Positions 52,412 to 55,549 are shown, counted from the stretch's first letter. The stretch: DNA of 64,000 nucleotides from Thermoanaerobaculia bacterium (GCA_036001325.1 DASYUK010000375.1:1616-65615); one strand, 5' to 3'. Numbers and translations: made by a program. The notes: a model not told the origin generated them from the letters alone.

Positions 52412-55400
52412 CTACATCGTCGGCTGTACTTCCTGCGGGAGGTGTTTCTTGAAAAGCTTGATCAGATCGTCGACGGCGACCGGTTTGGCCACGTAATCAT
52501 CGACCTTGAAGTAGTCGAGAGCCTCGTTGCGATACTTCCGATCGGTGTAGAGCCCGGTCATGATGATGGCCTTCACGCGCGCCGTGGACGGATCTTCTTT
52601 GAGCAGGCGGCACATCTCCCGTCCGTCGAGCTTCGGCATGAACGCGTCGGAGAGAATGAGATCGGGGTTGTACTCGCGAGCGAGGGTGAGCCCCTCCTGA
52701 CCGTTCGCGCCGACGATGAAACCGTATCCCATCGTGGTGACGACAGTGCGCACGATCAGTTGAATGTTCTCATCGTCCTCGACCAGCAGAATCAGCGGCC
52801 GTCTCACCTCGGCGGTCGTCGGATTGCCTCGACCGCCGGTGTTCCGTTTCGAGCCAAGCATCTTTCGTTCAAAGAGCGATGGCGGTGCGTCGATCCAGAA
52901 CCGCTCTTTGTACACGGACGGCGCCCTGCAGAAGCACCAGCCGCAGTGTGTGCAGACCAGCGTCTGATCGCGGCCGAGGCAGGTGCACCATTCGGCGTGA
53001 ACGGCGTCGAACATCTGATTGCAGTGATGACAGCAGACCTCGTATGAATCGCGATTATCGGCCGTCGTCACGACGGCCGGCACTTCACTCTGCTCGAGAA
53101 GAGTGGACAGCGGAATCGATCGATCGTCGTCATCATCGCCGGCAGCGCTCGGCTCCGGCGGTGGTAGTTCCTCGGGATGCTGGGCGGGGGTCGCTCCCTC
53201 CAGATGTTTCTGGAACAGGTGCACGAGCTCAGTGACCGCCACCGGCTTGGCCAGGTATTCATCGACGTGAAATCGCTTCAATGCCTCGCTTCGATATTTC
53301 GTGTCGGTGTAGAGACCTGTCATCACGACCACCGCGCAGTCGCCGTCCGCTTCTTCCTTGTACATGCGGCACATCTCGCGGCCGTCCAGCTTCGGCATGA
53401 AGGCGTCGGCGAGGATGAGGTCCGGCTCATACAACCGCGCTGCTTCAAGTCCGTCGACGCCGTTCTCGGCGTGCACGAATCCGTATCCGAGGTTCGAGCA
53501 GACGCGCTGCACGATGATCTGGATGTCTTCGTCGTCTTCGACGCACAAAACGAGCGGACGCGTAACCGCTTCTCGCGGAGGACTCGGCGCCAGTACACCT
53601 TCCTGCTTTCGCAGCTCCGACGGCTTTCGCTCATTCAGTTGCGCCGGCGCATTCATCCAGAATTTTTCCTTGTACGACGGCGGGGCCTTGCAGAAGCACG
53701 CCAGACAATTCGTGCAGACGACCGTTCGCTCTTTGGTGAGGCAACTGCACCAATCCGACGTCATCGCATCGAACGTCATGTGACAGTTGAAGCAGGGGAC
53801 TATGTATGAGGCGCTCGACGGTGAAACCCGCGGTTCGATCATCGTGAGCGGAGCGGACTCCGGCGCGACGTTCGGCATCTCTGGAGTTGGCTGAGAAGGA
53901 GCGGCAACAGGCGAGGCCGCGGGACGCACAACTTTGGCCACCAATTGTTGCGGATCGGCCATCGCCTGACGCGCGATCTGCGCGAGAGCTTCAGCATCGT
54001 ATGGCCGCGCGACAAATCCCGCATGTCGATCAAGGCTCGACGTCGTTCCGAGAGTCATTTTTCCGGTGACGAAGATCGGAAGATTCGGACGCTGTAATGT
54101 GATCGCCGTGTAGATCTTGCCGAAGTCAGGCAACTCCCCATCGACCATCAGCGCGTCGGGGCGGAAGCGGAAGATCTCGTCGACTGCATCAACCCATCGC
54201 TCGACGATCTCCACCTCCACGCCGCGTTGTTTGACCTTCGGAGCGATGGCATCGGCGGTTCCCCGGCGGCGCTCCACCATCAGAAGACGCGGCTTGCGCT
54301 CAGTTTGTAGTGGACGAACGGCGGGTGCTGCCGTCGCGGCCGGCCGACGTGGCGCGACGCCGCTTCCGACGATTTTCTTCGCAGGCACCGGTTTGCGCCG
54401 TCGCACCTTTGGCAGCCATCCTGTGATCCTGGAGAGCACTCCGCCGCCGGTATCGCGCTTAACGGAAATCTTTCGCGCGGGCGGCGGCGGTGGCGCCTCG
54501 GCGCGTGGAGGCGGCTCGGGTTTCGGCGCAGCGCTGCTCTGTTCCTCGGTGCGCTTGCGGATCGTCGCACGCCTTTCCTCGATCCGCTTCTGAAGCGTCT
54601 CCTCGGCGGCTCGCGATTCTTCAGTGATCGCCTGAGTCAGGCGCTCTTCGATCGATCGCCGCAACTGCTCGCGTTCGCGTTGCAGACGCTCTTCGGCCGC
54701 GGCGCGCAATGCATCGCGCTCGGGCGCGAGTTGGTCAGCGACGAGACGCTCCGCTTCGGCATGGACGGCCTCACGCTCCGCCGCGAGCCGGCGCTCCAGT
54801 TCCGCTTGAATGGACGCGCGCTCAGCCTGGAGTCGTTCGCCCAGCGCGCCTTCCGCTGACTCGCGTTCGCGACGCAGCTCGTCCGCCAACTGCTGCTCGA
54901 ATTCCTGCTCGAGCTCACGGCGAATTCGCTTGACTTCGCGAGCGACGCGCAAGTTCGTCTCGTTGCGCAGCTTCGTTCGATGCTCGGCCACGCGCGCTTC
55001 GACGGGGTCGAGTGAAGGACAGGCGCCCTCGCCTGTCGATGTGGGCGTGGGAGTTGGAGTCTCCAGGACAGGCGGGGGCGCCTGTCCTCCACTGACACGC
55101 TCGAGTTGTTCCGTCGCAGCACGCTCGAGCGCACGAGCCATCTCTCGACGCTGCTCTGCCTCACGCGCCTGCTGCTCACGATCGAGGCGCAGCTCGAACG
55201 CGACGACATCGCCGGTCGGTGCAGGCGCCACGGCAACGTGAACGCGACGACCCGGAATCGAAGTTTGAATGATCGCCGTCGCAACGGCGCTCGCGGCGAC
55301 GAAGGCGACAATCGCCGACGCACCGATCGTGCTGCCGAATAGCGCGAGCAGGAGCAACGCCGACAGGGCGATCGACAGAGCCGCCGGACGCCAGCCACCC

Positions 55401-55549
55401 TTCCACGCCGACAGCGCGGCGGCGGCGATGTAGCTACCAATGATGAGGAGACGGGCGTTGGGATAGAGAAATCCCAGACCCGTAGCAAGGATCACCAGAT
55501 CGATGGCGATGCCGTATTGAAAAACTCTCTGCCTGGTCTCCGATGTCAT
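52412..55549 (-). CDS. Membrane-anchored multi-receiver signalling protein: N-terminal TM region, long coiled coil, degenerate REC-like domain, then two tandem 8-Cys module plus receiver (REC) units
   Basis: TM helices in residues 1-110. Charged 11-residue-periodic coiled coil (ELERRLAAEREAVHAEAERLVADQ...). Cys modules CFNCHMTFDAMTSDWCSCLTKERTVVCTNCLACFCKAPPSYKEKFW and CCHHCNQMFDAVHAEWCTCLGRDQTLVCTHCGWCFCRAPSVYKERFW. Each is followed by a canonical REC (LCVEDDEDIQII...PDLILADAFMPKLDG...VVVMTGLYTD...YLAKP and LLVEDDENIQLI...PDLILSDAFMPKLDG...AIIMTGLYTD...YVAKP). Confidence 0.75.
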   Translation of the reverse strand: MTSETRQRVFQYGIAIDLVILATGLGFLYPNARLLIIGSYIAAAALSAWKGGWRPAALSIALSALLLLALFGSTIGASAIVAFVAASAVATAIIQTSIPGRRVHVAVAPAPTGDVVAFELRLDREQQAREAEQRREMARALERAATEQLERVSGGQAPPPVLETPTPTPTSTGEGACPSLDPVEARVAEHRTKLRNETNLRVAREVKRIRRELEQEFEQQLADELRRERESAEGALGERLQAERASIQAELERRLAAEREAVHAEAERLVADQLAPERDALRAAAEERLQREREQLRRSIEERLTQAITEESRAAEETLQKRIEERRATIRKRTEEQSSAAPKPEPPPRAEAPPPPPARKISVKRDTGGGVLSRITGWLPKVRRRKPVPAKKIVGSGVAPRRPAATAAPAVRPLQTERKPRLLMVERRRGTADAIAPKVKQRGVEVEIVERWVDAVDEIFRFRPDALMVDGELPDFGKIYTAITLQRPNLPIFVTGKMTLGTTSSLDRHAGFVARPYDAEALAQIARQAMADPQQLVAKVVRPAASPVAAPSQPTPEMPNVAPESAPLTMIEPRVSPSSASYIVPCFNCHMTFDAMTSDWCSCLTKERTVVCTNCLACFCKAPPSYKEKFWMNAPAQLNERKPSELRKQEGVLAPSPPREAVTRPLVLCVEDDEDIQIIVQRVCSNLGYGFVHAENGVDGLEAARLYEPDLILADAFMPKLDGREMCRMYKEEADGDCAVVVMTGLYTDTKYRSEALKRFHVDEYLAKPVAVTELVHLFQKHLEGATPAQHPEELPPPEPSAAGDDDDDRSIPLSTLLEQSEVPAVVTTADNRDSYEVCCHHCNQMFDAVHAEWCTCLGRDQTLVCTHCGWCFCRAPSVYKERFWIDAPPSLFERKMLGSKRNTGGRGNPTTAEVRRPLILLVEDDENIQLIVRTVVTTMGYGFIVGANGQEGLTLAREYNPDLILSDAFMPKLDGREMCRLLKEDPSTARVKAIIMTGLYTDRKYRNEALDYFKVDDYVAKPVAVDDLIKLFKKHLPQEVQPTM

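Follow-up and report, generated by a model that had tools for sequence, protein, structure and literature searches.

We analysed a stretch of 64,000 nucleotides from a Thermoanaerobaculia bacterium (GCA_036001325.1, DASYUK010000375.1:1616-65615), which we refer to as the window. On the minus strand, at 52412..55549, it encodes a protein of 1045 amino acids with an N-terminal membrane block, a pseudo-receiver, and two cassettes that each consist of a small module with eight cysteines (Cys8) and a canonical response-regulator receiver domain (REC). Cys8 is a family that is new, but its general kind is familiar: it is one of the small cysteine-rich, probably metal-binding accessory domains of signalling proteins. 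The features of this gene are as follows (coordinates are those of the window and residues are those of the protein):

52412..55549, minus strand: the whole gene (1045 amino acids), membrane-anchored, with a pseudo-receiver and two Cys8-module-plus-receiver cassettes
55259..55543, minus strand: N-terminal membrane block, residues 3-97, weakly DUF4118-like, with helices predicted by AlphaFold 2 (AF2) at 3-28, 33-51, 53-71, and 77-97
54539..54991, minus strand: long Glu/Arg-rich region, residues 187-337, predicted by AF2 as a single 150-residue helix
53927..54292, minus strand: pseudo-receiver, residues 420-541, where ERRR replaces the acidic pair and R515-P516 replaces K-P, and where D470 is retained
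53621..53809, minus strand: Cys8 module copy 1, residues 581-643, seen in the translation; 110 bits with the module profile
53195..53560, minus strand: canonical receiver 2, residues 664-785, Pfam Response_reg; E671-D672-D673, D715, T744, K768
52859..53047, minus strand: Cys8 module copy 2, residues 835-897, seen in the translation; 119 bits with the module profile
52439..52801, minus strand: canonical receiver 3, residues 917-1037 (best Pfam stretch 920-1032); E924-D925-D926, D968, T998, K1022

We can rule out an annotation artefact at 52412..55549, as a 100% identical protein (P0001) is called on a public contig, a 21-kb metagenome contig from the Joint Genome Institute (JGI). A search with the full-length protein gave 61 orthologues (P0001-P0061). 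All 61 are from metagenome-assembled genomes (MAGs) of Thermoanaerobaculia or Acidobacteriota, and their annotations are solely "response regulator" or "CheY-like".

Both copies of the module are 63 amino acids long and have identical cysteine spacing, CX2C-X11-CXC-X8-CX2C-X2-CXC (C586, C589, C601, C603, C612, C615, C618, and C620 in copy 1; C840, C843, C855, C857, C866, C869, C872, and C874 in copy 2). These ligand positions account for 16 of the 23 cysteines in the protein. The preliminary description of this locus, which was made from the sequence alone, reported two such modules that are each N-terminal to a canonical receiver, and our results agree. The module-to-receiver distance is about 20 residues in both cassettes, Pfam recognizes both receivers, and the entire module-plus-receiver cassette is duplicated, with 54% identity over 204 amino acids (E = 9e-83). 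With such an E-value, chance or low complexity cannot be the origin of the repeat. When we ran the module profile on the six-frame translation of the window, we found only these two copies and nothing more. Among the orthologues, 60 of 61 keep the exact cysteine spacing in both modules, and the C-terminal cassette is almost invariant. In P0059, copy 2 has an aspartate at the second cysteine of CxC. The preliminary description also included a conserved histidine (H590, just after the first CxxC), but this residue is asparagine in copy 2 and mostly arginine or glutamine in the orthologues, so it lies outside the motif.

The module is not limited to these orthologues. A profile of 33 modules, compared with 1.84 billion representatives of clusters at 50% identity, matched 303 representatives at E <= 1e-3 and 179 at E <= 1e-10. 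(A word-indexed homologue search gave no candidates for the 74-amino-acid module alone and one match for the module alignment; such an index is too coarse for a 63-amino-acid domain.) We also scanned one genome per GTDB species for a degenerate DNA pattern, CPxCxxCFC-x10-W-xx-AP, and obtained at least 120 loci; a true module is present in 120 of 120 loci among the matches listed. This pattern is biased to the "CPxC" subtype, and neither its taxon counts nor its ratio of REC to ATPase forms are population estimates; with this caveat, the record titles give an Acidobacteria or Acidobacteriota label (for the phylum, a class, or an order, or as "Candidatus Aminicenantes") for 114 of the 120 loci among the matches listed. 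The titles name Thermoanaerobaculia, Vicinamibacteria (including Marinacidobacterales), and Polarisedimenticolia, and we confirmed that these groups belong to Acidobacteriota. Two of the 114 loci are from one MAG of "Candidatus Aminicenantes", a group that GTDB places in Acidobacteriota. The exceptions among the matches listed are single contigs labelled Schekmanbacteria, Sumerlaeota, Gemmatimonadaceae, and Hyphomicrobium, along with two records titled "uncultured bacterium". The 120 loci all come from MAGs, and in several MAGs there are three or four loci, with receiver-type as well as ATPase-type genes. For example, one MAG holds an ATPase form (L009) and three ORFs of receiver size (L027, L028, and L051). 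The Cys8 family is found almost exclusively in MAGs of Acidobacteriota, which have several paralogues apiece.

Pooling the matches from the cluster representatives with the genome loci gave 410 unique modules (residue numbers within the module are used below), and the spacing of the eight positions is preserved across about 410 instances. C6, C9, C35, C38, and C40 are cysteine in 100% of these; C32 is cysteine in 409 of 410 and C21 in 406 of 408. C23 varies a bit more: it is cysteine in 373 modules, aspartate in 26, histidine in 5, and arginine in 2. The eight cysteines are essentially invariant in homologues, as the preliminary description had supposed. The other near-invariant residues are Y2, F/Y13, D14, A15, A18, W20, T/S29, F39, A42, Y46, K/R47, F50, W51, A54, P55, and L58.

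We compared the module to catalogued families in several ways. For the window's two modules, Pfam-A gave nothing at E up to 10 except for one noise match to C2H2, and NCBIfam gave nothing above cutoff; TIGR00622 (ssl1) matched the module below its threshold (E = 0.002-0.014; 16-19 bits versus a cutoff of 45). When we scanned 79 diverse modules against Pfam with E up to 1, 51 families matched weakly, with the sub-threshold matches scattered over the zinc-ribbon families and C1_4 of TFIIH. Zn_ribbon_8, Zn_ribbon_4, and Zn_ribbon_5 matched 7, 6, and 4 of the 79 modules (best E = 0.0066, none at cutoff), and by their hidden Markov model thresholds, none of the 79 modules belongs to a zinc-ribbon Pfam family. 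The generic architecture of ribbon-like knuckles seems likely from the model of the module (described below). C1_4 (PF07975) matched 4 of the 79 modules weakly (best E = 0.1). The module does not belong to the RING or C4C4 RING-like (PF07975) families, as these matches are all below threshold and the spacings between ligands 4-5 and 6-7 differ. The spacing of zf-AN1 (PF01428) is CX2C-X(9-12)-C-X(1-2)-C-X4-C-X2-H-X5-H-X-C; the first half of the module fits this and the second half does not, and the window's modules had no Pfam match to zf-AN1 at E up to 10. The module is also not a ferredoxin-type 4Fe-4S domain (CX2CX2CX3C(P)): it has CX2CX2CXC followed by K/A-P, and the window's modules had no match to Fer4. 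In the scan of the 79 modules, the 25 families that were matched weakly most often include neither zf-AN1 nor any of the Fer4 type. ComFB (PF10719) had no Pfam match, either for the window's modules or in the scan of 79 modules.

Searches of all PDB sequences, with phmmer and with a profile, and a fold search found no significant match for the module. With Foldseek, its model has weak neighbours among the RBR/IBR and rabphilin-type fingers. For the 61 orthologues, the precomputed Pfam annotations, which use newer versions (such as PF00072.31), list HC2 in P0033 and DUF4118 in P0059 besides Response_reg, and no zinc-finger or Cys-rich family. We did not find a description of the Cys8 domain in the literature. 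As far as these comparisons can tell, the Cys8 domain is its own family and matches no catalogued one, in keeping with the initial failure to assign it to a named zinc-finger family.

An AF2 model of the module alone, for which the predicted local distance difference test score (pLDDT) is 91.4, consists of four short strands (3-5, 12-14, 20-22, and 28-31) and two helices (44-52 and 56-61). In this model, C6/C9 and C32/C35 lie in hairpin knuckles, and C21/C23 and C38/C40 are on extended segments, with residues i and i+2 on the same side. Given the sequence and this model, we predict that the module is a di-metal domain, most likely with two zinc ions held by four pairs of cysteines (two CxxC knuckles and two CxC strands). 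A binuclear metal site was suggested in the preliminary description, and it is the natural reading of four conserved cysteine pairs in which the one exchangeable ligand is swapped mostly for aspartate or histidine. Because C23 is replaced mostly by residues that can be metal ligands, we expect a metal site; this would not be expected of a disulfide scaffold. The pairing of the ligands is probably interleaved, with pair 1 joined to pair 3 (knuckle with knuckle) and pair 2 to pair 4 (strand with strand), because of the placement of the pairs in the AF2 model. A sequential pairing, of C6/C9 with C21/C23 and of C32/C35 with C38/C40, stands as the alternative to this predicted arrangement.

The metals could instead be in iron-sulfur clusters: the module would hold one or two [4Fe-4S] or [2Fe-2S] clusters and would sense O2, NO, or cellular iron. 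The C-terminal half of the module (CX2CX2CXC) is near the ferredoxin-type CX2CX2C, and many of the hosts are Thermoanaerobaculia, which are likely to be anaerobes. However, the full ferredoxin motif (CX2CX2CX3CP) is absent, the model is built of strands and knuckles as in zinc ribbons, and the weak Pfam signals are mainly to zinc ribbons. Also, the family is equally common in Vicinamibacteria (among the matches listed), and cultured Vicinamibacteria are aerobes. Finally, aspartate or histidine at a ligand position is more typical of zinc sites. We consider an iron-sulfur domain to be very unlikely.

The receivers that follow the two modules appear to be functional. The protein scores 132.4 bits against Pfam's Response_reg (PF00072; gathering threshold 30.2) in two stretches, which correspond to receivers 2 and 3, and in both of these the acidic pair, the phospho-acceptor aspartate, the threonine or serine, and the lysine are all canonical. 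These columns are conserved across the module-linked receivers. Outside of the orthologue family, a receiver follows the module in 168 of 278 cases, and in 124 of those 168, the module profile and the receiver profile are separated by 13-16 amino acids. The module-linked receivers form a coherent subfamily (RP-LVLVVDD ... DAxMPxxDGRExCR ... MT..Y ... KP) with the aspartate, threonine or serine, and lysine intact. One stand-alone module-REC gene (P0157) is in an operon with the order OmpR-type regulator, module-REC, hybrid kinase, REC, and Hpt-REC-GGDEF. As this is an ordinary two-component operon, the module-linked receivers are real phospho-acceptors.

The subfamily motif contains a ninth cysteine, in helix 3 of the receiver (DGRExCR). 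This is C727 or C980 in our protein (window positions of about 53369-53371 and 52610-52612, minus strand), and outside of the orthologue family it is present in 84% of the module-linked receivers. If the module is redox-active, this cysteine could be relevant. This brings up another explanation for the module, that it is a redox sensor: under oxidative or electrophile stress, it would lose zinc and form disulfides, which would alter the behaviour of the adjacent receiver or ATPase, a mode of action like that of Hsp33 or ZAS anti-sigma factors. Hsp33 uses CxC and CxxC motifs. Besides the ninth cysteine, this idea fits with the eight invariant thiolates, which include CxC and CxxC, and with the location of the module next to regulatory domains. 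On the other hand, one of the ligands is often aspartate or histidine, which are redox-inert; the receiver is already an input, and a second input would be unusual on a small protein; and we saw no linkage to thioredoxin or peroxidase genes in the conserved neighbourhood (five genomes). Overall, we view a redox sensor as unlikely, though less so than iron-sulfur clusters.

Other proteins with the module show where it can be placed. Across 135 non-orthologous representatives, the Pfam counts were 81 for Response_reg, 14 for GGDEF, 13 for EAL, 5 for MshEN, 4 each for T2SSE and GAF, and 2 for PALP; many of the remaining representatives are short fragments. The commonest size class among the module matches is a module-REC protein of about 210 amino acids. 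Other architectures include GAF-GGDEF-EAL-module-REC, PALP-module-REC, module-REC-tRNA-synt_1c (P0219), module and REC followed by a C-terminal region of no Pfam family (P0121 and P0133), and a module-MshEN-T2SSE ATPase with no receiver. Of the module-bearing ORFs among the matches listed from the pattern scan, 58 of 112 have REC and 46 of 112 have T2SSE (which, as above, does not estimate the population ratio), and MshEN is detectable in 23 of the 46. The module strongly prefers a position directly N-terminal to a signal-receiving domain. The preliminary description argued for a strict coupling of the module to REC, but this is refuted by the MshEN-T2SSE ATPases, which are headed by the module and lack a receiver. 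Because the module is found in hundreds of signalling proteins and ATPases, it is a real building block and not a one-off.

Some proteins carry more than one module. P0092 (416 amino acids) has modules at about residues 95 and 215 and a receiver at 300-408, and P0100 (628 amino acids) has two modules that are about 225 residues apart, so the tandem use of modules is not unique to the 1045-residue protein. Also, two Acidobacteriota MAGs each have two tandem module ORFs of about 580-620 amino acids (L032, 2533-6135, plus strand; L025, 4149-7787, plus strand). In L032, both of these ORFs are T2SSE ATPases and MshEN is found in the second one; for L025 we relied on the modules and the ORF sizes. 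The genes that flank the tandem ATPases are an M36/M4-like peptidase and a spermine-synthase-like gene, and not pilus or secretion genes.

These architectures bear on two more explanations. The module could be a receptor for a second messenger, either c-di-GMP or a related nucleotide, in which case it would be a functional analogue of ComFB or MshEN. Consistent with this, the module co-occurs with GGDEF-EAL (14 of the 135 representatives) and precedes MshEN, which binds c-di-GMP, in the ATPases; the conserved neighbourhood includes a gene with weak similarity to PilZ; and the conserved K/R47, F50, W51, and R61 could stack a dinucleotide. ComFB provides a precedent, as it binds zinc in B. subtilis and is occasionally fused to REC (PMC12448109). 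However, the module has no relationship in sequence or fold to PilZ, MshEN, or ComFB. Receivers in general often co-occur with GGDEF or EAL, so the co-occurrence is weak evidence. Also, neither RxxxR nor the c-di-GMP motif of MshEN is evident by eye. A messenger-binding role therefore seems improbable to us.

Alternatively, the module could be a zinc finger that binds nucleic acids, and so serve as the DNA or RNA output of the module-REC regulators of roughly 210 amino acids. Many zinc ribbons bind nucleic acids, the helices of the module are basic and aromatic, and the stand-alone module-REC proteins have no other candidate for an output domain. But secretion-type ATPases, a membrane-anchored protein, and GGDEF-EAL enzymes (at their C-terminal end) carry the module too, and DNA binding is implausible in these contexts. 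We give this explanation little chance of being correct.

We tentatively propose that the module is a structural zinc finger, that it offers a surface for docking or output, and that in the receiver context, the presentation of this surface is gated by phosphorylation. We hold this with a bit less than even confidence. The metal ions would be structural, and the surface would be the helical face formed by Y46, K/R47, F50, W51, A54, P55, and L58. The partner of this face might be common to the several paralogues in each cell, or the modules might pair with each other. In our protein, phosphorylation of the adjacent receiver (at D715 or D968) would control whether the surface is presented, and two such Cys8-REC switches and the pseudo-receiver would be held at the membrane, within a cluster of a three-gene operon and a divergent gene. 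More broadly, the module would be a portable N-terminal accessory, which goes with either a dedicated subfamily of receivers or the MshEN of orphan ATPases of the type II secretion system/type IV pilus (T2SS/T4P) type. We favor docking or output because the module is always on the N-terminal side of a regulatory domain, because several paralogues place it on unrelated engines, and because the same helical residues are found in both contexts. The part that the module plays in interactions, and its gating by phosphorylation, are what we infer here; its boundaries, duplication, invariant cysteines, architectures, and taxonomic range, as well as the canonical active sites of the receivers and the synteny, come directly from the data.

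Several observations weigh against this proposal. The conserved aromatics could be nothing more than the core of a small domain, and not a binding face, and the docking partner is still hypothetical. Eight thiolates would suit a redox switch equally well, and the CX2CX2C stretch recalls iron-sulfur motifs. The identity of the metal and its stoichiometry are predicted from sequence, and the pairing of its ligands from the predicted secondary structure. The module-ATPases are orphans, sometimes in tandem pairs, and their flanking genes are unrelated. Finally, we ran a mean-field direct coupling analysis on 257 unique module-REC pairs (effective number of sequences about 110). It recovered known contacts within the receiver, such as the phospho-acceptor aspartate with the lysine, but the best coupling between the domains was 1.71 versus 1.07-1.46 for shuffled pairs, in a set that is underpowered, and these couplings were mostly to helix 1 of the receiver. 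We think it unlikely that Cys8 is a new sensory domain (one that switches with redox state or metal, or one that binds a nucleotide second messenger) that directly gates both the phosphorylation of receivers and the activity of the orphan T2SS/T4P-type ATPases.

The remainder of the protein was modelled with AF2 from an alignment of 59 orthologues. The predicted order is four helices, a disordered stretch, the helix at 187-337, a disordered stretch that is basic and rich in proline, a domain of alternating strands and helices (421-541), and the two cassettes. The N-terminus is conserved among the orthologues from Met1 onward. Their total lengths range from 975 to 1454 amino acids, and the length of the long-helix region varies widely. 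The transmembrane block in the preliminary description corresponds to the four helices predicted at residues 3-97, for which pLDDT is 79-97 per block of ten residues and above 94 across residues 11-90; hydropathy windows exceed 1.6. DUF4118 (PF13493) matches the protein weakly (12.4 bits versus a cutoff of 28.4), and a precomputed DUF4118 match in one orthologue (P0059) is marked as faint.

The region at 187-337 had been described as a long coiled coil. The helix is indeed long, at 150 residues, but the coiled coil is unproven: 47% of the residues are charged (Asp/Glu/Lys/Arg), 18.5% are hydrophobic, and few of the a and d heptad positions are occupied. With this composition, the region may be an ER-rich single alpha-helix, a reading that fits no less well than that of a classic coiled coil. 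Residues 355-420, upstream of the pseudo-receiver (about 54290-54485 in the window, minus strand), are a basic stretch of low confidence, with a motif that is conserved among the orthologues (consensus K.SL..T..GWF.R.P..R.VNL.TKR).

The first of the three receiver-like domains (residues 420-541) was called a degenerate REC in the preliminary description. Its relationship to receivers holds up. AF2 predicts the alternating beta-alpha pattern of a receiver, and for most of the domain its pLDDT exceeds 90. On its own, this domain scores only 13.5 bits against Response_reg, which is below threshold, but a profile of 18 orthologous first domains matches the receiver structures of PmrA, YycF, LuxO, and MtrA over positions 3-105 (E = 1.7e-6); the FrzS receiver is also among the matches in PDB. 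Because the profile matches receiver structures over nearly its full length, we conclude, on the strength of that profile, that the domain is a true but diverged homologue of receivers. What it lacks is a functional phospho-acceptor pocket, as E426-R427-R428-R429 stands in for the acidic pair and R515 for the lysine. E426, R428, R429, D470, R515, and P516 are invariant across 59 orthologues. With the acidic pair changed to an invariant pair of arginines, and the lysine changed to arginine, the domain is a pseudo-receiver.

The neighbouring features in the window are as follows:

55572..57011, minus strand: operon partner X, 479 amino acids, upstream with a 22-nucleotide gap; signal-like N-terminus, Pro-rich and ER-rich repeats
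51222..52397, minus strand: operon partner Y, 391 amino acids (423 in the JGI call), downstream with a 14-nucleotide gap
57075..59351, plus strand: divergent gene for a 758-amino-acid protein, present and divergent in 5 of 5 genomes
59425-60453, minus strand: PilZ-like protein of 342 amino acids (sub-threshold PilZ, E = 6e-4, 20.5 bits versus 22.5)
60489-60884, minus strand: ORF of 131 amino acids, called as a Response_reg gene on a twin contig (L123)
60925-61575: Abhydrolase_11 gene, adjoining the receiver and PilZ-like genes
51096-51172, minus strand: tRNA-Arg(CCG), directly downstream of Y
about 50600-51041, plus strand: ParE toxin and RelB-like antitoxin pair, beyond the tRNA-Arg

We compared this neighbourhood in five genomes (the window/L123, L001/L002, L124, L128, and L129). 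In all five, the core consists of a divergent gene (742-784 amino acids) and an operon of X (337-522 amino acids), the triple-receiver gene, and Y (340-517 amino acids). Neither X nor Y has a Pfam match on record in the five genomes. X from the window has only sub-threshold matches to TPR and TolA-like families, and its ER-rich repeats (AADERIAAER...) resemble the long helix of the 1045-residue protein. Y has a signal-like N-terminus, is rich in proline and threonine, and has a C-terminal hydrophobic anchor; the window's Y had no match in Pfam or NCBIfam.

The five copies of the divergent gene's product are 52-58% identical to the window's copy and have a very conserved core, with the invariant segments YDITSFT ... 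EKFLGDGAFYTS ... MRIALNYGYY ... EFYGPGIVELSRL. This protein has no match in Pfam, NCBIfam, or PDB. From its motifs, we suspected by eye that it was a class III nucleotidyl cyclase, but neither Pfam scans of the five orthologues nor a profile search of PDB confirmed this.

Further upstream, an Abhydrolase_11 gene and a single receiver of 131-138 amino acids are found in 4 of the 5 genomes, and a weak PilZ-like gene is between the single receiver and the divergent gene in 3 of 5. The preliminary description suggested that the protein might be a phosphorelay hub with metal or redox input; none of the five genomes has a gene for a histidine kinase or Hpt near the cluster. In the window, synteny stops at the tRNA-Arg and the ParE/RelB pair, so this region may be a hotspot for insertions.

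Acidobacteriota are among the most abundant bacteria in soil and sediment, and their signalling is almost unstudied. The Cys8 domain is compact, conserved, and specific to this lineage; it forms at least 300 clusters at 50% identity and is not recognized by current catalogues. If it were named and characterised, hundreds of proteins that are now called only "response regulator" could be annotated better. The module also joins two very different engines, phospho-receivers and secretion-type ATPases with MshEN, so it may show how Acidobacteriota connect phosphorelays with c-di-GMP and with pilus- or secretion-type machinery. If it is merely a structural docking zinc finger, then the new family remains useful, though conceptually unsurprising. 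If the module is instead sensory, then it would be an Acidobacteriota-specific layer that links two-component, c-di-GMP, and secretion-ATPase pathways via one small domain.

Among known systems, the zinc beta-ribbons (Zn_ribbon_8, Zn_ribbon_4/5, and DZR-type) share with the module its small size, CxxC knuckles at the turns of beta-hairpins, and predicted stabilization by metal. The module differs in having two additional CxC pairs, a fixed cysteine scaffold of 35 residues, and a C-terminal extension of two helices (YK..FW..AP..L). The cross-brace fingers with two zincs (zf-AN1, C1_4 from TFIIH p44/Ssl1, and RING/PHD/FYVE) likewise have eight ligands in four pairs, and the CX2C-X11-CXC half of the module fits the AN1 pattern. 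However, the X8-CX2C-X2-CXC half is unlike the spacing of AN1 or RING, and the module is bacterial and found in one lineage.

The N-terminal zinc-binding domain of ClpX is a C4 finger on a hexameric ATPase, where it docks adaptors and substrates. The module is likewise N-terminal on the MshEN-T2SSE ATPases, but this is a functional analogy only: the ClpX domain is unrelated in sequence, has a single C4 site, and belongs to another family of ATPase, and our PDB searches found no homology. ComFB (PF10719), like the module, is a small accessory domain of signalling proteins, but ComFB has a helical fold, while the module has eight cysteines and, in its model, four strands and two helices. ComFB domains are small receptors for cyclic dinucleotides that are mostly stand-alone and are sometimes fused to REC or other signalling domains (PMC12448109). 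They are linked to the biology of c-di-GMP and type IV pili, and B. subtilis ComFB binds zinc; ComFB uses four cysteines, in some lineages only, and has a solved structure, 4WAI (PMC12448109).

Finally, the first domain of the 1045-residue protein is like the FrzS-type pseudo-receivers in that it is a homologue of receivers that lacks the acidic pair for binding Mg. It differs from them in that its pocket holds the invariant R428-R429, and in that it is part of a protein with two Cys8-REC cassettes and a membrane anchor.

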